A stretch of DNA of 35,944 nt, taken from the IMG/VR virus record IMGVR_UViG_2645728048_000030. The stretch is one strand, 5' to 3'. This document shows positions 1 through 35,944 of the stretch, one piece after another. The notes beneath the pieces are model-generated. The model was not told the origin of the DNA. It saw only the letters and a program-made list of their open reading frames with translations, and made no database searches. Within the stretch, counting starts at the first letter, position 1. Every line of letters starts with the position of its first letter. Source of the stretch: a virus. Its lineage: Duplodnaviria; Heunggongvirae; Uroviricota; Caudoviricetes. The position numbers and the translations under genes were made by a program.

Positions 1-696
1 TCACTTAGGGTATGGCTGAACCTTGAATAGCTTGGTATTTAGTCGCTTCCTTGCTCGCTTGTTCAGGAACCTGATGTAGCGATACTGATTAAATTTGTGC
101 ACCACGGCACGCTCTTTATTAGCCCGTAAATACACGCCTCGTTGTCCACCGCGTTTAATCGCGTTCATCGTTATCTCGTGATACCACTCACCATCCAGCT
201 CGTAGAACGTGCTTTCATGGCTGCCAATAAAATCAAAATTTGACGCCTGATACACAACGCCAGCACGTCCGCAGCGTTCGTCTGCAAAAGACTGAACCCA
301 CTCCACTGACGGATACAGTAACCTTATGGTTTTCAGTGCATAACTGATGGCCCGTGATTCAGAGTTGCGGGGCATGTCGTCGTGTAGCCACATGCGGTTC
401 AACTCCATATAGCCCCGGTTATCCGTTTCAAGCACGACACGACGACCTGAGTTGGGGTTAAGGGCATATCCCCACTGGAGAACGCCAACCAGATCGCGTC
501 CGCTGAATACTCCCAGGTGGAGGTAAGAGTTATTCACAAAACGGCGGGAATAGTGCTTTGTCTGAATAATTGTGCGGGCCAGCCAGCAAGATATGGTTTC
601 AACGCGCAGCTCCTTTGAACCATAGCCAACAATCTGGCCTTCATACTCAATAACGCACGGTTTCGTCAGAATGCGTGATTTTTTCTCTTTTCCCAC
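1..696 (-). CDS. mom: DNA modification protein Mom (anti-restriction adenine modification)
   Basis: Track ORF 1..726 is 241 codons from the first ATG. Codon 11 is GTG preceded by GGAGA about 6 nt upstream, giving 231 codons; the first ATG has no SD. Start overlaps the 3' end of com. Confidence 0.8.
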
Positions 697-835
697 AATG
701 TTTCTCCATGGGATGCTCGCAGGCATTCAGCATTATGATGTGACGTTTGCAACGCGGACACCTGATTTCAATGTGATCAAAGGAATCCGCCTTAAATAAC
801 AGTTTGTTGCAGTTTTTACAGCGAATTGATTTCAT
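647..835 (-). CDS. com: Com, zinc-finger translational activator of mom
   Basis: 62 codons with CxxC...CxxC motif, AAGGAG SD upstream, overlaps mom start as in Mu. Confidence 0.9.
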
Positions 836-950
836 CTCACCTCCTTTGCATCAATTCGCCACTATCTTAAAAAACATCATGGGTTGAGTGTGGTTATTGA
901 GACATAATCGATCTGTATTACCGATCGATTTGATTGATTCGATCGTCGTT
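836..950 (-). promoter_or_regulatory. mom operon control region: Pmom, candidate C-binding dyad, and three GATC (Dam) sites
   Basis: Three GATC within about 35 bp (near 910, 923, 941) overlapping the 3' end of gin; TTAT-N6-ATAA dyad near 894..907 upstream of com. Matches the known Dam/OxyR-regulated Pmom region of Mu. Confidence 0.6.
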
Positions 951-1511
951 TTCTATATGCGTTCGTTTCGCGGGGTGTTTTTTATACAGAGTTGACAGGG
1001 CCACATCGTAGATCAATGCAACCTGCTTGCGGGGGATTCCTTGTGCTAATAAACGCCCGGCCTGCTCCCATTCCGCTTTGGTTAGTTTAGGTGGTCGCCC
1101 ACCAATACGGCCTTTATTTCTGGCGGCAGCAAGTCCAGCCATCGTTCGCTCGATGATTAGTTCTCGTTCCATCTCAGCCAGGGCACCCATAACGTGGAAG
1201 AAAAAACGCCCCATTGGAGATGACGTATCAATACTGTCAGTAAGACTGCGAAAATTAATCCCTCGCTCTCGTAATTCCCCTACGAGAGAAATCAAATGTT
1301 TCATGCTTCGCCCGAGGCGATCCAGTTTCCAGACAACAAGTGTGTCACCTTTTTGAAGGCGCTTTAAAGCGCGTTTTAATCCAGGTCTGTCTGTCCTTGT
1401 TCCGCTTAATTTATCTTCAAATATTTGTTCACATCCTGCACAAACAAGAGCGTTTCGTTGCAGGTCTGTATTCTGGTCATTTGTTGATACCCTTACATAG
1501 CCAATCAGCAC
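918..1511 (-). CDS. gin: Gin serine recombinase (G-segment invertase)
   Basis: 197-codon ORF, N-terminus MLIGYVRVSTNDQ typical of Gin/Hin resolvase-type invertases. First codon reads as GTG in the sequence. C-terminus may be a few residues longer than I recall for Mu Gin (unverified). Confidence 0.9.
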   Translation of the reverse strand: MLIGYVRVSTNDQNTDLQRNALVCAGCEQIFEDKLSGTRTDRPGLKRALKRLQKGDTLVVWKLDRLGRSMKHLISLVGELRERGINFRSLTDSIDTSSPMGRFFFHVMGALAEMERELIIERTMAGLAAARNKGRIGGRPPKLTKAEWEQAGRLLAQGIPRKQVALIYDVALSTLYKKHPAKRTHIENDDRINQIDR

Positions 1512-1565
1512 TCTGGATCTCCCGTTTAAAAGCGCAAATCATGCCATGCAGGCCGGAAACAGCCA

Positions 1566-1600
1566 TTATCTAAAACCTCGGTTTACAGGAAACGGTAAAC
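1566..1600. repeat. gix recombination site adjacent to gin
   Basis: ttatctaaaacctcggtttacaggaaacggtaaac; inverted copy at about 4750..4783 with 2 mismatches. Confidence 0.8.
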
Positions 1601-2425
1601 AAGGCTGGTAACGCTGTTCAGCGTTCTGGCGATACAATGACCGGAAAACTGAATCTACCACAGACATCTGCATTCGGCGTTGATACCGATAATGCACTGG
1701 GTGGTAATTCCATTACTCTCGGAGATAACGACACTGGTATTAAACAGGGCGGAGACGGTGTCCTTTTATTCTATTCAAATGGACAACTGGCATTTGGGCT
1801 TCAACCCGCATCTGCTGATTTTTATAAGCGGGTTGCATACATTCCTCAGGGAATAATTCCTGATGGAAGTGGCGCATTTGCAGACCAGTTGAATAATGCC
1901 ACCGCGCCTTTTGTTCAGACGCAGTTTGCCTGGAATCCCACTCCTGGTGGTCATTACGTGCCGATAGTTAAGGGCTTGTCCATTCGCAATGGACAGGGCT
2001 ATCCCGGCGCGGTCAGCTTTGGTTATTTGCTGACAGAACAGTATGGATTTCCGGTTCCATGTATTCATATGCGTGGCGATGGCGGTAATGATGCTTTATG
2101 GCAGTTTAACCCGAACGATAAATCTTTTATTTCACCGGGTGCTCTTGTTGCGGGTGGCATCATTTATAACACCGATGGAAATATATTTGGCGGGTGTTGG
2201 GGTTCAAATTTAGCTGATTATCTCAATAGCACATATGTAAGAGACATTCGACTTGGTAGCGCAGAATCAATATCAGCATGGCGAGGCCCTGGTTACTGGG
2301 ATACTTCTGGATATGTTCTGACCGCAGCCGGAAACAGCAACACCGATGAATTTATTGATACATTAACCAGAAGGCCTATTCAGAAGTTGATTGGTGGGAC
2401 ATATTATAACGTTGTGAGTATTTGA
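1574..2425 (+). CDS. Alternative tail-fibre variable segment S'v, silent in this orientation
   Basis: Track ORF 1637..2425. The frame is open from inside the gix site (encodes NLGLQETVN, as does the S side), so inversion would fuse it to the constant part of S. C-terminus is homologous to the S C-terminus. Confidence 0.75.
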
Positions 2426-2426
2426 C

Positions 2427-2954
2427 ATGATGCATTTAAAAAACATTAAAGCAGGGAACCCCAAAACACCTGAACAATACCAGTTAACCAAAAAAGCTGG
2501 AGTGGTCTGGCTTTATACTGAAGATGGTAAAAACTGGTACGAAGAACAAAAAAACTTTCAACCAGATACTATAAAAATTGCATACGATAAAAATAATGTG
2601 ATTGTTACCGTAAGCAAAGATGTTTCAACTATTAACCCGGAAGGTTTAAGTGTTGTTGAAGTATCCGATATTACGGCAAATCGTCGCGCAGACAATAACG
2701 GAAACTGGATGTTTCTGGATGGTAAAGTAGTAAAGCGGGAATATACAAAACAGGAGCTGCAACAGCAGGCAGAGTTACAAAAAGCCGCTTTGCTTTCCGA
2801 AGCGGAGTCTGTGATTCAACCGCTGGAACGTGCTGTCAGGCTGAATATGGCAACTAATGAGGAACGCGCACGACTGGAGTCATGGGAACGCTACAGTGTT
2901 CTGGTCAGCCGTGTGGATACGGCAAATCCTGAATGGCCACAAAAGCCTGAATAA
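2427..2954 (+). CDS. Alternative tail-fibre assembly protein U', silent orientation
   Basis: 175 codons, N-terminal 40 residues nearly identical to the U ORF on the opposite strand ([11 protein letters not shown]...). Confidence 0.8.
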
Positions 2955-2959
2955 AAATT

Positions 2960-2979
2960 AAGGCCCGATAGCGGGCCTT
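2960..2979. terminator. Hairpin between convergent U and U' (bidirectional terminator candidate)
   Basis: aaggcccg-atag-cgggcctt, flanked by an A-run on one side and T-rich sequence on the other; a T-run follows on the minus strand. Confidence 0.5.
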
Positions 2980-2982
2980 GTC

Positions 2983-3516
2983 TCATTCTGGTTGTTCCGG
3001 GAATGTTACAGGAAGAACAGAGGTATCTGTGGCATCAACCTGCTGCATGTATAACATCCAGTTAATGAGTCTTTGCCTGTCTGAATCGCTGATAATTCCC
3101 AGCGCAAGCTGTGTTTGCCAGCACTGCGTTTCCTCTCTGGCCTGTCGCAGCAAAATCTGTTTCTGAATTTCAGCCAGTTGACGTAGTTCTTCATCAGTCC
3201 GGGGGCGTTTCATGACCTTGCCATCCTGAAACACCCAGTCACCGAGAATATCGGCCCGGCGATTCGCTGTCGTGTCGGGTAATTCGACAACGCTCATTCC
3301 TTCCGGGTTAATAGACGACACATCTTTTTCAATATAGCGAATGATACCTCTGTCATCGTAAGCGATTTTTAGTGTGTCTGCCTGAAAGGCTTTTTGTGCC
3401 TCATACCAGTTCTTACCATCTTCAGCGTAAAGCCAGATAACTCCGTGTTTCTTTGTTAACTCATACTGTTCCAGTGTTTTAGCGTTACCCGCTTTTATGT
3501 TCTTTAAGTGCATCAT
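2983..3516 (-). CDS. U: Tail-fibre assembly protein U (expressed orientation)
   Basis: 177 codons directly downstream of S; paralogue of U'. Confidence 0.85.
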   Translation of the reverse strand: MMHLKNIKAGNAKTLEQYELTKKHGVIWLYAEDGKNWYEAQKAFQADTLKIAYDDRGIIRYIEKDVSSINPEGMSVVELPDTTANRRADILGDWVFQDGKVMKRPRTDEELRQLAEIQKQILLRQAREETQCWQTQLALGIISDSDRQRLINWMLYMQQVDATDTSVLPVTFPEQPE

Positions 3517-3517
3517 A

Positions 3518-5278
3518 TTAAACGCTCGCTACATTATACCAGGTGCCATTTATATACTTTTGAACGGGTCTGTAATAAACGCCCGCTATATTATCGGCAG
3601 AGTTGGACCCTGTATCCTGAACATTAATACCAGACAATACATGACCTGACGGGCACTGGAAATTCCATGTTTGCCAGTTGTTCACACCATGATATTGCTG
3701 TGAACCAAGACGAACATCTTTCACATAGCGGGAATCAAAATTCCCCCAGTTGCTGGGTTGTATCTGACCGTTAACAGCAAATATCACCGAGTTATCTGTA
3801 TTTCGCTGACTATAGAAATGCCAGCCTGAATCATCACCAAGCTCTGCAACAGTTGGTCTTGACGAATTTCCCCACAAGCTAAATGATGCATTACGGGCAG
3901 CGGTATTTGCACTTGAAAGTGTGAAGAACTTACTTTCCCCAGCCTGAATACCCTTTAATGATCTTGCTGAACCATTTATAAAGCGGAATACATGCACACC
4001 ATTAGCATAAGCATCCAGCACCCCATCACCATTTTGTTTAAACCCGGTATCGTTATCTCCTAAAACTATTGAATTTCCACCCAGGGCATTAGCCGTTCCA
4101 ATCCCCAGATTTCCGCTAAAAATGGCATTAATACCGAGTATTGAGTGAGAACAATAAAACCCTCGCCCATTGTTAAAATCCAGAATGGCTTGTGCGTTCG
4201 TGCTTTCTGTCGCGGGATTAGTTGCTCCCCACTTATATGTTGTTTGACCGACAGTATAATCCTGAGTTGGAACAATAACCGTTAGCCCTTCTTCAGCAGA
4301 AACCCGCACAGGAAAAGCCCTGCCTTCAACGTAAAAAACGCTGCATACATCATCTTCTTTAAGGCTTGTTACAATGGAATGGATTGCGCGCTCATTAGTC
4401 TGATACGTCGAAAAATAACCTGCCGCATATGAACCACGATCAGTCCAGCCACCAGGCATTACCATTCCATTGAATTCGCAGTTATTCATTGCGTAATCAC
4501 TACTGGCACATGTGGTCGTTATAATCACTCTGGAAGCCAGCTCGCCAGTGCCGCCTGTGGAACGCCGGAAAATAACTGGATACCACTTTCCACCAATTGC
4601 ATTAGACGGCGCATTAAATGCGTACTGCCGCATTCCTTTTTTCTTATCCACCTCGCCTTTGCTGTAAACATTAATGTTACTCAGGAAGCGATCCTTATCA
4701 GGAATATCCGCGCCGTTCTGGTTTTTCTGTAATGCGCCAGAAGCCTGATTTACCGTTTCCTGCAAACCGAGGTTTTGGATAAACAGCGGCTTATTGGGAA
4801 TATCTGCTCCGTTCCGGTCTTTTGCCAGACGGGCACTGGCATTATCCATCGCAATTTTCACCGCTTTTGCGGTGGCTGCCAGCGTTTCACTGGGGCTGTC
4901 AGTGGCACTGGTTAGCTGAACGAGTCCTTTTTTGTTCAGGCTGGCATCATAAATATCCAGATTTTCACGTGCTGTACGCTGTGCTGATGCCCCGGCAGTT
5001 TTAATTTCGCTGAGGTTATTTTTTATCAGCAGTGCGTTATTGCTCATAATGGCTTTAATGGATAGTGCAAGCTGGTTTAATTTTGTTTTATCCGGTTGAA
5101 TACCGGCTTCTTCCAGCGTGTTTAATAACTCCGCCTGCACAATATTAAACCAGTCCATGCCGGGCCATGTGATAACATTATTCCCGTCACCTTCTGAAAA
5201 CCAGCGAACGATAGCACTACGCTGGGCGGATACGGGCGGCATGACGGTTACGCCGCTGTCGTTATCAATATAAAACAT
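3518..5278 (-). CDS. S: Tail fibre protein S (constant part plus variable part in G segment)
   Basis: 586 codons; gix site lies in codons about 166-177; C-terminal 190 residues homologous to S'v. Confidence 0.85.
   Translation of the reverse strand: MFYIDNDSGVTVMPPVSAQRSAIVRWFSEGDGNNVITWPGMDWFNIVQAELLNTLEEAGIQPDKTKLNQLALSIKAIMSNNALLIKNNLSEIKTAGASAQRTARENLDIYDASLNKKGLVQLTSATDSPSETLAATAKAVKIAMDNASARLAKDRNGADIPNKPLFIQNLGLQETVNQASGALQKNQNGADIPDKDRFLSNINVYSKGEVDKKKGMRQYAFNAPSNAIGGKWYPVIFRRSTGGTGELASRVIITTTCASSDYAMNNCEFNGMVMPGGWTDRGSYAAGYFSTYQTNERAIHSIVTSLKEDDVCSVFYVEGRAFPVRVSAEEGLTVIVPTQDYTVGQTTYKWGATNPATESTNAQAILDFNNGRGFYCSHSILGINAIFSGNLGIGTANALGGNSIVLGDNDTGFKQNGDGVLDAYANGVHVFRFINGSARSLKGIQAGESKFFTLSSANTAARNASFSLWGNSSRPTVAELGDDSGWHFYSQRNTDNSVIFAVNGQIQPSNWGNFDSRYVKDVRLGSQQYHGVNNWQTWNFQCPSGHVLSGINVQDTGSNSADNIAGVYYRPVQKYINGTWYNVASV
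4750..4783. repeat. gix recombination site inside S
   Basis: tttaccgtttcctgcaaaccgaggttttggataa; inverted repeat of the site at 1566..1600. Confidence 0.8.
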
Positions 5279-7921: not shown

Positions 7922-9048
7922 GGCGGCGTTTTCTCCGGGTGTCTGCGATAATAATCTTCAACCAGCGCATCAATACCGCCGTTACTGTCGCCGCCTTTCC
8001 TGTTTTTACGGTCGCTTTCAACCGGCACCAGAAAGCCTTCGCGTGGTGCAAGGCTGACGCGGGTTTTCAGCCCGTCCTGGTCATTCAGTATCAGGGTGAC
8101 TTTGCTGACCAGTAATTCCGTGGTTTTGATGGCATATTTCGAGGCATCAATAGTGACCAGCAGGTTCGGCATCCAGAGTTGCCCGTCCTTGCGAGTCCAT
8201 CCGTCAATTTCAGCCTCAAAGGTGATGGATTTTGCCAGTCTGCGGCGTTGCTCACGCAGGGCGCGGGCCTGTGCATCCTTCGCCGTAATTTTGCTGTCAG
8301 CAATGATGATCATCGGTCTGTAACGGGTTACATCACTGTCAGTGGCGGTCCCTTTCCGGGAGACGATACTTTTCGCATCAATATCATCACCCTCAGCACC
8401 GTTTGCGCGGGCATACCCCTTGACGGTGTATTCGCTGAACCGGTCGCGGAAGTCTTCCTCAAAATCCAGTGTCAGCAGATTTTCTCCGAGAACCAGCTCA
8501 TCAGTGGCTGTGCTGGCAGCCCGGCTGAATACCAGCTCTCCTGCGGCATTGCTGGTCATCAGTACACCGCGTGCGCGGGAGGCACGCACCAGCGCCTCAT
8601 AAACGGTTTCTGAATGGTCCAGCGTGAAGCCGGGAAAAGCTGCCGAACTTTCCTTATCGGAAAGCTCCCAGCGAACGGTAACGCCATAAGGAGCGCACAG
8701 GTCACGCGCAATCTGCTCCAGTGTGCGGTTTTTCCACTGTCCGCCACTGTAAACGGCAGCACAGTCAATCAGGTCAGCCGTTTTGTCACGTCCGGCGATA
8801 GTGATTTTCATGCTGTCAGCGGTCATCTGGCGTCGCCGCGAATCGATATAACCGGTGCAGACAATCTGCCCGTCGATTTCCAGCGTGAACGCCTTCCCCG
8901 GTGCCAGCCCGGATAAATCTGTACCCGGTGGCACATTCACCCCCAGCTCAAAATATCCGGCTACGGATTCAATGGAGCGGGTGACAGAGACTGACGTCCA
9001 GCCGGTAAAAAGCCTGCCATCCGTTCGCAGCGTGACGGTATTACTCAT
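7909..9048 (-). CDS. Baseplate hub protein (Mu gp44-like)
   Basis: 379 codons, synteny downstream of DNA circularization gene. Confidence 0.65.
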
Positions 9049-10528
9049 TAATCACCTCAATACTGACACCACCGGGAACAAACAACGGGTTGCTGATACC
9101 GTTCCTGCGGGCCAGCCGTTGCCAGTTCCGGCTGTTTCCTGTGTAACGGTACAGAGCCACCATTGCAGGCATCGTCTCCGGCAGGCGGTGCGTTTCACTG
9201 CCTGCCAGTTGCAGCCCGCGTTTTTCCAGGTCGGCAACAACCAGCAGACGCAGTTGCGTAAGCTGAACGCTGTCTGTCGAAAAGCCCTGCTCAGATGCCG
9301 TCAGAATGACGGTATCCAGCGCTGCCCCCAGCATGGCGGCTGTTTTTCCGATATCGGACACACTTTCAAATACCGGGGGCGTGGCTGTACCACTGTCTGA
9401 AAAGGATACCTGTGAAAAGCCGCCGTCCGGGGTTATGGCAGTTAACTGTAACTGTCCCTGTGTGACGGTAGCGGATGTGCTGCTGGCCCCGCTGGCTGTG
9501 CCGGTTGTGGTGGACGGGGCATCCAGTACAGGTGCACGGGCGGCATTATCCATCCGGCGACTGAAATCCAGTGCCGCAGTCAGTGCCTGGCTTGCTGCCT
9601 CCGCCCGGTATGTCTGTGCTGCTGCCAGCATGACGTAGTTCAGTGTGGCAATATTTTTTTCTGCAACCGGACTGTTGTACGAGGTTGTGATTGTCCCCTG
9701 TCTGCCTGCGGTGGCGGCATGGCGACGTTCGAATCGCTGCGCCAGACGGTTCCATGTGGAAAATGCTGTCCGGGTATCGCATAACGATGAAACGCCGGAC
9801 AGCGCCCCCATCAGCGAGGAGGCCAGCATGGCAGGCTGGTTAATCAGGCTGGTCACAGAGCCTTTCATCGCAGAAAGCGATCCCATCAGACCGCTGACAG
9901 TCTGCGTAACCCCCAGATTGTCCACCGCATCACTGATATCATCGATGACACCGGTTACAGCTTCCATCACGGCGGTTGCCGCCGCAGTGCCATCTTTTAC
10001 GGTCTGCCAGACAGAGGACAGCGTATCTCCCAGAGAACCGGTTACAGCAACGGCCTGTGCCGGTACGGCTGCACTGGTGTCTGTCTCTGAGTCCGGGGCA
10101 GTATCCTGCAACGACGGATAAACGGTAACGGTGAACGCGTAATAATTCAGTTCATCCGCTTTAGTGCGGCATTCCCATGAATCCACCATGACGTCCACAG
10201 TGCCGAAATCAGGATGTACCAGCTCACCGCTACCCGGAGCATCAAGAGCATCCATCAGCGCACCCGCTTCATCTCTGGCTGTTTCTGCGTTGCTGTTCAG
10301 AATGCAGGCGCTGAATGTACGGGAGCGAAGCTTTTTCCCCAGGTCATTGACGCCGCCGGTATCACGTAACGGGTACTCGCGTTTAACCAGGCGACGTCCG
10401 CCAGCCTGTTTTTGCTCCTCGATGACGAGAAACGGCACGTTACGAAACGTGCCTTTGCCGGTTGTTTTCTTACCACCGCTGATTTTATCCCGGACAGCAT
10501 TAACGGCATTTAAAGCATCTTCAAACAT
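9041..10528 (-). CDS. DNA circularization protein (Mu N-like, gp43)
   Basis: 495 codons directly after the tape-measure gene; position and size as in Mu. Confidence 0.65.
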
Positions 10529-10532
10529 GGTT

Positions 10533-12608
10533 TTACCAGCCTGTAATGTAGTTATCGCCCGCGTAAATATTCAGCCCCATACCGTCCTCGGTGACGCGGG
10601 AACTGGTCAGACGTAACCCCTCGGCAAGTTCGACGCGCAGCGAGGCTTCCGCATTCACTTTTTGTTCCTGCGGTTCCTTATCCGGGGCCGTCCATTTCTG
10701 ATACAGGTCGGTTACAAAACCGCCCAGATACTCCCCGGCGACACTGCCCAGCGTGGCACCGGCAACCGTACCCAGCGGTCCGGCAAGGCTGCCAACGGCA
10801 CCGCCGAGCCATGCACCGGCTGTACTGCCAATTGCGCCTGCTTTTTCATGGGTTGACGCCTGCTCATCCATCAGGACGGGGGCAAGCTGGAGTGCCCCCA
10901 TTACTGGGCCACCCAGACGTGACAACACACGACCGGCACCTTTCCCCATCCAGCCCAGCGCCCCGGCACCTTTTGTCACAACCCGACCGATCGCACTGCC
11001 TGCAAGTTTGTTTCCGATACCGGAAAACCACCCGCCAACAGCACGCCCGGCATCAGCCAGCTTTCCGACCGTTCCCGTAACCAGTTGCCCGGCAGCACTG
11101 CCTGCAAGCCTGCTCAGAAGACCGGATTTACCGGGTAAAGGTAATGGTGCAGGCCGTGCTGTTACCGGTACGCCGGGTGGGGGTAATGCCAGTACAGGGC
11201 GTGGTGCAGGTAATGCCAGCGGCTGTGGCCCGGACAGCAATAACGGCTGGCGGGGTAACAGCGGGGCCATTCTTCCGCCGCTCCGTCCGCGACGACCGCC
11301 GCCACTCCCGTAGCCACCAAATCCACGGGGCCAGTTGATGACAAACACACGCTGAATGCCGATACCCTGCAACAGCGTCTCAGACGTCATGGCATCCGGG
11401 ACCGGCAGACCTGCCTGCCCACGTTTGCGGTTTCGCATCCAGCGCCACATACGACGCCCGGTTTTAAACGGATAACTGGCAACCTGCCATGAGGGTTTTG
11501 CCACGGCCCAGCCTGCTCTCAGGGCTTTATTGGCAAGCCAGACAGACACCAGAACAGCAGCCAGTTTTTTCAGGCTGACAATATTCTGGTCAACCCATGC
11601 CAGCGCATCTTTACCCGGTTTCAGCCAGCGCCATAATTCCTGCGCCGCGATTTTTACCGTTCTGAACGTGGTCAGAAATTTCTGACCAATGTTTTCTGCC
11701 AGTGCGTCAAGTTCCCCGGATTTATCCGCCATGTCGTGCCAGTTAAGCACCCGGCGCATCTCGTTCTTGATTTCTTCAAAGGGGCCGCTGTTTGCCACCT
11801 TTATGCGAAATTCAAGCAGGTTAGCTTCCATCTGGGCGAACATCCCGTCCCAGGAGTTCATCGCACTGGCCTGTGCACCTTTTGACTGTTCTGACAGCGT
11901 TCTGAATACCGTCAGAATGGATTTCAGACCCAGCTTGCCTTTTTCACCTTGTTTGCGGATATCCTTAACGTCTTCTTTACCCAGTGCATCCGCCAGCGTC
12001 TGGTAAACGTTAATACCGTAACCGGTCAGCAGGTTGGCATCCGCCGCCGTGATTTGCTGGCGGGCAAACATCTGTTTCAGTTGCAGTGAGGCACCCTGTG
12101 CAGTGGGTAAATCCCAGCCGTGCATGGCCCCCTGATCCTGCAACATGGTGATGAACTGTTTCGTCTGTTCATCCGTCATGCCGAAGCCTTTCGACGAACG
12201 GATCTCATCCAGAACACCACTCAGCCCCCACGTGGTGTCCTTCGCGTTCTGCTTTGCCCAGGCCATCATGGCCTGCGCTCTGACCTTATCGCCGTGATAC
12301 AGCGAGTTCATGGCGATAATTTGCTGCTCACGCTGGGCGGCTGCACCAATAAACAGTTTATTGGCGGTGTAACCCACACCAGCGATACCCAGCGCCCCGG
12401 CTGACAGCATTCGGAATGTACGGGTTGACAGTGAACCCATTCTGTCAATGGCACCAGAAACGCGCACAACCTCCATACGCAGGGCACGAAGGGAACTTTG
12501 TCCGCTACGGGACAGGGCGTTTATCTGGTTCGAATACTGGCGGGAACGCCGGGAAAGATTGCCATTAAGATCAATAATGACAGACGCCTTTAAGCGTTTC
12601 CCGGTCAT
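10533..12608 (-). CDS. Tail tape-measure protein
   Basis: 691 codons, Gly/Ala-rich C-terminal region, located after the tail chaperone gene. Confidence 0.75.
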
Positions 12609-12752
12609 AGAGATTTCCTGATTTAACGGTGATATTGAGAGAGGGTTTTAGCCTGCTGGCAGTGCCGGAAAAAGCGGGACAGCGGGAGGGATAAGGCCCA
12701 TTCCGGGCCACTTTTCAGAATAACGCCAATCGCTGTCGCCGCTTTCTCAATA

Positions 12753-13187
12753 TCATTCCGGCACCGCAGCCACTCGCCCCCGTTCTTGTGTCAGCGATGC
12801 CGCCACAGCCATGTCGTACATTTCTGTAGCCAGCGACAGACGCTGGAAGTCATCAACAGACAGCTTGCGCATCAGCGCCAGCGATAACGGGCCTTTGATG
12901 CAACCCACGCTGGCAATCTGTCGGCGCAGCATTTCCAGTCCCATCCGGGACGGGGAACTGACCAGCACCGGGCCTTCCTTGCTCATTACCAGCTTTTCAG
13001 CAGCCGCCTGGGCATCAATCAGATCGCCTGCGGTCAGTTCACGCAGCGTCACGTCATACTGCATTTCAGTCTCGTCACCGGTGCCGAACGGCAGGCCGTC
13101 TTTCAGTTTCAGCACGCCGGACTGAATTTCTGCCACAATGCTGTCATGCAGTTCCTGTGCTTCAGGACCTAAATTCATTTCGTCCAT
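12753..13187 (-). CDS. Tail assembly chaperone-like protein (Mu Y-like)
   Basis: 144-codon acidic protein between tube and tape-measure genes. Confidence 0.6.
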   Translation of the reverse strand: MDEMNLGPEAQELHDSIVAEIQSGVLKLKDGLPFGTGDETEMQYDVTLRELTAGDLIDAQAAAEKLVMSKEGPVLVSSPSRMGLEMLRRQIASVGCIKGPLSLALMRKLSVDDFQRLSLATEMYDMAVAASLTQERGRVAAVPE

Positions 13188-26332: not shown

Positions 26333-26360
26333 AAATAACCGGCAGGATGCCGGTTATTTC
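26333..26360 (-). terminator. Dyad hairpin at the C stop codon (middle-transcript terminator and/or C-binding dyad of P-lys)
   Basis: aaataaccggca-gga-tgccggttattt, 12-bp perfect stem overlapping the C stop; U-rich 3' arm on the minus strand; lies about 70-95 bp upstream of the lys ATG. Confidence 0.45.
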
Positions 26361-26776
26361 TGGCTTTCAGGTGAGAACAGATCAGGCTGATGACGTCGTG
26401 TATGCAGCTTTCTCTGGCGGGCAATAATCTGGTAGATCTGCGGCTGGGACAGGCGATACTGGCGACGCAGTTCTTCCATGTTACAACCATTGAACTGGCA
26501 GTAAAGCAAATCGTCGCGTAACGCGGTCAGGATCGTATCGCCGCAGGGGATGTAAAACTGCCGCCCGCCCAGAAAACAGGACAGGGCAACGGCCTGTTTA
26601 CGGGCAAGCTCACGGGGATTGCTGACGTTCTGGCGTTTCAGTTCGTTTTCCAGAACATCAATCAGATCAACCACCGAACGGGGCCAGCGTGATTCCAGTT
26701 CCGGGGCCGGGATGTTATCAATATGTCCGATTAACTGGCGAATTGCCGGATCGTGTTCAAATAAATCATGCTGCAT
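26354..26776 (-). CDS. C: Late-gene transcription activator C
   Basis: 140 codons; paralogue of Mor (shared GG.Q.YIP...FNG.N..EL motif). Confidence 0.9.
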   Translation of the reverse strand: MQHDLFEHDPAIRQLIGHIDNIPAPELESRWPRSVVDLIDVLENELKRQNVSNPRELARKQAVALSCFLGGRQFYIPCGDTILTALRDDLLYCQFNGCNMEELRRQYRLSQPQIYQIIARQRKLHTRRHQPDLFSPESQK

Positions 26777-32503: not shown

Positions 32504-32731
32504 TTATCTCCAGATAATCTGGCAACCATTAAGACGGGCCGTCCATACAGAACGGGCAACTCCGGATTTATGCTCCATAATTCTGACCGCGTTTTTTACC
32601 AGTTCCACCGGTGGGTAAGTGATTTCAAGAATCGGACGCGCCACGCCGAGATATGATTCATTTACATGACTCCCGCGCGCCTGTAACCAGTTCTGCGCAT
32701 CCGTTGCCATTTTTATATTTCGGGCCATCAT
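32504..32731 (-). CDS. Small protein immediately after B (position of Mu kil)
   Basis: 75 codons, AAGGAGA SD; identified by position only, sequence not recognised. Confidence 0.45.
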
Positions 32732-35716: not shown

Positions 35717-35944
35717 TTACTCACCTGCTTGATATCGGCTAGGCCAGATTACTTCCGGTTTAGTTTCTAAGGCGTTAGCAATAATCTGCTCACCCTTTGG
35801 CCAGTGTCGTTCTAGCGCATTAGCTAATGTAGTTGGCGCATAACCAAACTGCCGGGAAAGAGCTGATAAAGAGAGCTTTCTTTTCTTAAGTCCCGCAATC
35901 ACATCCGCACGATGCCAATCACGGGCCTTTTCGTTGGAACACAT
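35717..35944 (-). CDS. ner: Ner, negative regulator of early transcription
   Basis: 75 codons [21 protein letters not shown]..., recognised; start codon is the last triplet of the window. Confidence 0.9.

Follow-up and report, generated by a model that had tools for sequence, protein, structure and literature searches.

The mom operon of bacteriophage Mu is a textbook example of a toxic gene kept under layered control, which combines Dam methylation and OxyR, the activator C, Fis and a translational switch operated by Com. A cluster of three GATC sites is also found in the OxyR operator of the E. coli agn43 (flu) gene, where methylation and OxyR binding are mutually exclusive, as in mom; agn43, however, constitutes a heritable on/off switch of a host gene that has neither an activator C nor a translational lock, whereas the OxyR site of mom lies upstream of an activator-dependent promoter. 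The Mu promoter has a poor −35 element, suboptimal spacing and a T stretch and depends on C, and the region is further subject to Dam/OxyR control, Fis, the divergent promoter momP2 and Com (PMC3378877, PMC4461284); these papers confirm in qualitative terms the control by Dam methylation, OxyR and C that the original prediction had named for Mu. The Gly-tRNA chemistry of Mom has also been described (PMC13219725), and the com-mom operon of Mu (AF083977 / NC_000929) is the experimentally characterised reference.

The stretch of DNA analysed here (IMG/VR record IMGVR_UViG_2645728048_000030, 35,944 nt; hereafter the window) represents, in reverse orientation, the genome of a Muvirus, as follows from the close match of its positions 1-1600 and 1-25000 to D108 and Mu. 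In megablast comparisons with phage records, the whole 1.6 kb of positions 1-1600 is 98.4% identical to D108 (GQ357916 / NC_013594) and 97.2% identical to Mu, the matched part of these records bearing the annotations mom, com and gin, and positions 1-25000 are 99.1% identical to D108 and 97.9% to Mu, at 87% coverage each. The window has gin, com and mom in this order and also contains the invertible G segment and the genes C, Mor and lys; the cut that bounds it falls precisely at the mom stop codon. About 13% of positions 1-25000 is covered by neither D108 nor Mu at the megablast level, and the genes of the tail fibre and the G segment probably belong to this divergent part; coverage of the same positions by Yersinia phage vB_YpM_Tongde is 97%.

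Table 1 Features of the com-mom locus and the C gene, in window coordinates (−, complementary strand).
Feature	Position	Strand	Details
mom coding sequence from GTG	1..696	−	231 codons, stop at 3..1; Gly-tRNA-dependent adenine-modifying GNAT enzyme
com coding sequence	647..835	−	62 codons; CCCC zinc ribbon; translational activator of mom; 3' end overlaps mom
Translation-inhibition stem-loop (TIS)	691..713	−	CCCAU pairs with GUGGG; predicted minimum free energy (MFE) structure
In-frame upstream extension of mom	697..726	−	ten codons from ATG 726..724
Lineage-specific C-to-T substitution	708	−	A on the + strand; from alignment with Mu and D108
Com-binding RNA hairpin	713..726	−	AUGC-CUGCGA-GCAU; loop carries the CC(N3)GAG motif
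com Shine-Dalgarno GGAGG	840..844	−	4 nt 5' of the com ATG; read from the sequence
Pmom core	864..894	−	−35 ACCACA (894..889), 19-bp spacer, −10 TAAGAT (869..864)
Pmom T6 run	874..869	−	inside the 19-bp spacer; −17..−12
TTAT-N6-ATAA dyad, putative late activator C site	894..907	−	TTATTGAGACATAA; −50..−37, centred at −43.5
Three Dam sites (GATC)	910..944		941-944, 923-926 and 910-913; N14 and N9 spacing
gin, G-segment serine invertase	918..1511	−	197 codons, GTG start; Pfam Resolvase + HTH_7
C gene, trans-acting late activator needed for Pmom	26354..26776	−	140 codons; Pfam Mor family, E = 6e-33

At the protein level, Mom matches Pfam family PF25680 (E = 2e-75), differs from the chain of the Mu Mom crystal structure (PDB 8bv8) by one natural residue and keeps all of the catalytic residues R111, S124, D149, H58, Y59, R151 and Y159 (241-residue numbering). 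Com, whose 62 codons, zinc-binding character and termination within mom had been correctly predicted, matches PF10122 (Zn_ribbon_Com, E = 2e-9) and carries Cys6, 9, 26 and 29 in a CxxC-N16-CxxC arrangement; its reading frame ends 50 nt into mom as counted from the GTG (overlap 647..696) and 80 nt as counted from the upstream ATG. It is identical to the Com proteins of Mu and D108 save for a Thr43Met change, and a PDB sequence search with Com as query returned no match. The com Shine-Dalgarno sequence corresponds to the ribosome-binding site annotated in AF083977. C shares 137 of its 140 residues with Mu C (98%), the changes being Arg98Cys, Thr138Ser and Pro139Gln. Gin, with its stop codon at 920..918, has the length of the D108 protein, whereas in Mu the CAA codon of the window is a TAA, placed between the first GATC site and the second, and gin is thereby four codons shorter.

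Aligned with the Mu mom region, a check that the original prediction had proposed, the window contains all of the published Mu elements and is 97-98% identical to Mu/D108. Over the 371 nt of the control region (gin terminus to mom start) it differs from D108 by one base and from Mu by five. Four of the latter, namely one silent gin change, the CAA codon and two bases in the spacer of the dyad, are common to the window and D108, and the fifth, at position 708, is specific to the lineage of the window. A distinct, diverged mom system was considered and ruled out, the control region being only one base off D108. The promoter core, T6 run, −10 and −35 elements, GATC sites, Com hairpin, GUG start and mom end are the same as in Mu, and Com and the three GATC sites are shared with D108 apart from the consequences of position 708; on the other hand, D108 mom is ~19 nt longer and is followed by a D108-specific gene, whereas mom of the window ends as it does in Mu. 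The identity of every element and the protein families having been established in this analysis, the locus is almost certainly a canonical com-mom operon of a Mu/D108-type phage that is expected to work as in Mu. The system as such is already known and intensively studied, and the finding is correct but ordinary because this copy is nearly identical to the well-studied operon; as a discovery it matters little. The remaining interest lies in a single-base variant of the inhibitory stem, in a conflict over the annotated start of mom and in how broadly the GATC module is conserved.

The hexamers of Pmom and its putative +1 at 857 are assigned from the Mu literature combined with spacing; the resulting positions agree with the tin7 mutation (−14) and with the C footprint published for Mu, −28 to −57, within which the dyad lies. 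With TAAGAT taken as the −10 element, ACCACA falls at −37..−32, and the core has the same sequence as Mu throughout the promoter that AF083977 annotates. The TTAT-N6-ATAA dyad is located where a C site had been expected, centred 43.5 bp upstream of the +1 implied by TAAGAT; its spacer, GTCTCA, is that of D108, whereas Mu has GCCCCA. A T6 run and an ATAA element are also common to Pmom and the Plys promoter of the window. A sigma-70 consensus scan of positions 1-1700 found no promoter, a result that is uninformative for Pmom because it is expected of an activator-dependent promoter. Two TTAT-N6-ATAA dyads are observed in the window against 0.37 expected; the other one (32504-32517, TTATCTCCAGATAA) lies at the early/regulatory end of the genome, and adjoining it, from 32478, begins a 13/20 match to the OxyR consensus.

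Translation of mom would be governed by two adjacent RNA elements. The Com-binding hairpin is identical in sequence to the published Mu target, given as GAAUGCCUGCGAGCAUCCCACGGAG (PMC6483171), and its loop keeps the C-C-N3-G-A-G of the SELEX motif reported in the same study. Among 13 distinct homologous sequences, three of the four stem pairs covary with changes on both sides (AUGC/GCAU, GUGC/GCAU, GCAC/GUGC and GCGC/GCAC); pairing is found in 94% of cells, whereas slid controls do not exceed 62%, and the observed covariation score is not attained by any shuffle, which establishes the covariation of the hairpin. Directly 3' of it, the CCCAU...GUGGG stem-loop is predicted to hold the GUG start (696..694) within its stem and the Shine-Dalgarno GGAG (707..704) at the edge of its loop, and ViennaRNA predicts both elements in the window as well as in Mu. 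The CCCAC/GUGGG core of the TIS is kept in 15 of 15 other distinct sequences, with a loop that varies between 9 and 17 nt; because this core is invariant, covariation is unable to support the TIS, and its support comes from conservation instead. The folding energy of hairpin plus TIS is no better than that of shuffled sequences (z = +0.32 for the window, −0.62 for Mu) and, since these scores do not differ from shuffles, was not used as evidence. Scanning the whole window at Rfam gathering thresholds matched no family; hence neither the Com hairpin nor the inhibitory stem is represented by a curated model.

By analogy with Mu, the GATC cluster is a presumptive methylation-sensitive OxyR operator. 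Its sites lie at −87..−84, −69..−66 and −56..−53 relative to the inferred +1, and two of the four best OxyR consensus matches in the whole window (902-938 and 911-947) fall over it, a sequence hint with agreement at 13 of 20 consensus positions. Of what had been claimed for the cluster, the presence of three GATC sites within 35 bp holds, but the overlap with the final codons of gin is only partial: two sites lie within its last nine codons and the third is 5 nt past the stop. As a whole, the window contains fewer GATC sites than expected (71 versus 130.5 ± 11 in dinucleotide-preserving shuffles, 100 of 100 of which have more).

Could the triple and the dyad be by-products of gin coding and chance that have no regulatory role here? 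Two of the sites do lie within gin codons, uniform placement of 71 sites in 35.9 kb produces such a 35-bp triple in 11% of trials (p = 0.11), and the dyad pattern is short. Both elements are accordingly credited because of their position, their identity to Mu and their conservation in relatives, not because of counts. Evidence against a by-product comes from those relatives, in which absence of the cluster would have spoken against the original prediction and where the cluster was instead found to be present. The N14/N9 triple recurs 72-79 nt from the com ATG, with diverged intervening bases, in seven loci (L005, L007, L125, L126 and L159, and as N15/N9 in L019 and L127); three have N27/N9 spacing (L009, L124 and L131), and others keep only the N14 pair (L004 and the 17-contig L100 group) or only the N9 pair (the L130 group). 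Moreover, Mu gin itself ends before the second GATC site, and in four of the relatives (L005, L019, L124 and L126) the upstream gene is not gin but a tail-fibre assembly gene while the cluster is kept, which makes its overlap with gin incidental. When a cluster was defined as at least two GATC sites within 40 nt, and distinct 150-nt regions upstream of com were compared, it was found in 28/28 regions whose Mom is at least 90% identical to that of the window and in 24/28 at 69-90% identity, that is, in 52 of 56 distinct regions at 69% or above; random 150-nt windows from the same loci contain it in 7-10% of cases. Below 69% identity, in regions mostly from alpha- and delta-proteobacteria, only one of 31 has a cluster. 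With conservation of the cluster in relatives thus established, an origin in gin coding and chance is scarcely credible. The cluster is rather conserved among com-mom operons within a single lineage and no accident of gin, a distribution that fits Dam/OxyR control. Its fixed form, two or three GATC sites spaced by N14 and/or N9 at 50-80 nt 5' of com, may constitute a module that operons of Enterobacterales-type hosts expected to have Dam, with Mom proteins at least 69% identical, have in common and that the alpha- and delta-proteobacterial versions lack.

A similar question concerns where Mom begins. The mom frame is open for 241 codons from ATG 726..724 to its stop, and, as had been noted, this ATG (preceded by AUAAUGCUGA) lacks a Shine-Dalgarno sequence, whereas codon 11, a GTG, follows GGAGA (707..703) by 6 nt and yields 231 codons. 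Public records are in conflict: the ATG and 241 codons are annotated in RefSeq NC_000929.1 (Mu, 35877..36602), and the D108 record also starts mom at the ATG, whereas GenBank AF083977.1 (Mu) places the coding sequence at 35907..36602, with a GTG start and a ribosome-binding site 4-7 bases upstream. The literature is similarly divided, in that a GUG start is placed in the stem of the translation-inhibition structure by PMC6483171, while PMC13219725 numbers Mom from the 241-residue form, which it terms full-length, so that its S124 is S114 of the 231-residue protein. An upstream start, with the GUG serving merely as an internal valine codon, would agree with the open frame, with these two annotations and with this numbering. 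It is nevertheless very improbable, for the form without the first ten residues was crystallised and is active (PMC13219725), and PDB chain 8bv8 starts at the residue encoded by the GTG. The reported mass of Mom, 27,050 Da (PMC7261163), fits the 231-residue form without Met (computed, 27,042 Da) and not the 241-residue form (28,146 Da). In addition, the upstream AUG is itself part of the base-paired 5' arm of the Com hairpin, and the ten upstream codons tolerate an Arg-to-Trp change. Finally, among 160 loci with a Mom homologue that were compared, L004, L019, L012 and the L116/L118 group have an extension that is closed or devoid of an ATG. In L004 (Scandinavium) and L019 (Apirhabdus) an in-frame stop precedes the GTG aligned with that of Mu, and no other start is possible between the two; in L012 no start codon comes before this GTG, and in six IMG/VR contigs encoding Mom proteins 94-97% identical there is no in-frame ATG upstream of it. 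In more distant enterobacterial-type operons (L127, L130, L131 and L160) the GUG is found within GUGGGG. Conservation of the GUG and of the inhibitory stem in relatives, as established here, thus stands beside the AF083977 annotation and the literature in backing the predicted GTG start; Mom very probably initiates at GUG 696..694 to give a 231-residue product, and the ten-codon extension is probably not translated as part of it.

The base that distinguishes this control region from that of D108 as well as Mu, both of which have C at the equivalent of 708, changes CCCACGGAG to CCCATGGAG. In the TIS stem, the C-G pair adjoining the Shine-Dalgarno sequence thereby becomes U-G; the base is also responsible for the Com Thr43Met change and for the replacement of Arg by Trp at codon −4 of the mom extension; the region around Com residue 43 belongs to a disordered tail that is dispensable for RNA binding (PMC6483171). 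A sequencing error was considered as its source, and the same base is present in IMGVR_UViG_2690316161_000025, the only such case among IMG/VR contigs, although this second occurrence may not be independent, the contig being otherwise the same genome save for the orientation of the G segment.

Does U at 708 weaken the inhibitory stem enough for mom translation to become partly independent of Com, and regulation thereby to be altered? The predicted MFE rises from −14.4 to −11.9 kcal/mol, a loss in stability of 2.5 kcal/mol, and C occupies the position in all 15 other distinct sequences and in 79 of 80 IMG/VR loci, while T was found in none of 46 complete E. coli genomes carrying the com-mom region. 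Against this, U-G still pairs, the predicted structure is unchanged and the CC(N3)GAG motifs are intact; besides, a strongly leaky allele should be selected against because premature Mom is toxic. An altered regulation is, on balance, unlikely. On the folding model, the phage may still be a natural variant with leakier, less Com-dependent synthesis of Mom, and the substitution could serve to probe the Com switch.

Beyond the enterobacterial relatives, pairs of a Com-like ORF and a Mom homologue are widespread (loci L024-L075). In alpha- and delta-proteobacterial prophages (e.g. L024, L029, L033 and L053), a small ORF with a CxxC...CxxC pattern overlaps with the beginning of a PF25680 Mom homologue or adjoins it, as in the window; these Mom proteins, however, are only 45-60% identical, usually start with ATG and, apart from the single upstream region counted above, lack the GATC cluster, and the CCCAC/GUGGG stem is unrecognisable. 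Because such pairs are so widespread outside Enterobacterales, the Com-Mom pairing would be much older than the Dam/OxyR layer; if this is true, an older Com-Mom translational switch acquired Dam/OxyR gating on a single occasion. Put forward jointly with a leakier variant due to U at 708, this reading is a tentative one that we hold with considerable doubt. A different pattern is seen in the L100, L116 and L118 group (17 IMG/VR contigs), where Mom is 94-98% identical to that of the window but strong divergence affects com, the promoter and the upstream gene, and the GATC sites are reduced to two with N14 spacing; the combination of a conserved Mom with a diverged control region points to modular exchange of the control region versus the enzyme gene.

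We infer from the Mu literature how OxyR, Dam, C and Com bind and in what order events occur; on this basis the operon would operate as follows. In the prophage and in early infection, Pmom would be silent owing to its poor −35 hexamer, 19-bp spacer and T6 run, and OxyR bound to the unmethylated or hemimethylated GATC cluster just upstream would block its activation, until methylation of the three sites by Dam prevents OxyR binding. Late in the lytic cycle, C would then bind the dyad, untwist the promoter and recruit RNA polymerase. From the resulting bicistronic mRNA, Com would be made first, by virtue of its strong Shine-Dalgarno sequence, and its binding to the hairpin is expected to open the adjacent stem-loop holding the mom Shine-Dalgarno sequence and GUG, so that ribosomes could initiate at the latter and produce the 231-residue Mom. 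With Gly-tRNA(Gly), Mom would convert adenine to N6-carbamoylmethyl-adenine, by which the phage DNA would be shielded from restriction.

The invertible G segment of the window spans approximately 1572-4782 and is bordered by imperfect inverted repeats of ~41 bp (1566-1606 and 4742-4782). In this region, the contig that shares T at 708 is the same as the window except that G is inverted, all mismatches lying within the two repeats, which is the pattern expected from Gin-mediated inversion. The same contig contains a perfect 4776-bp direct duplication of G-gin-com-mom (270-5045 and 8390-13165), the copies of which are ~3.3 kb apart with other DNA between them; the duplication terminates at the end of the contig, precisely on the mom stop, and may be either an artefact of assembly or a second, partial copy. 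Its first mom stop lies at contig position 35944, a number equal to the length of the window.
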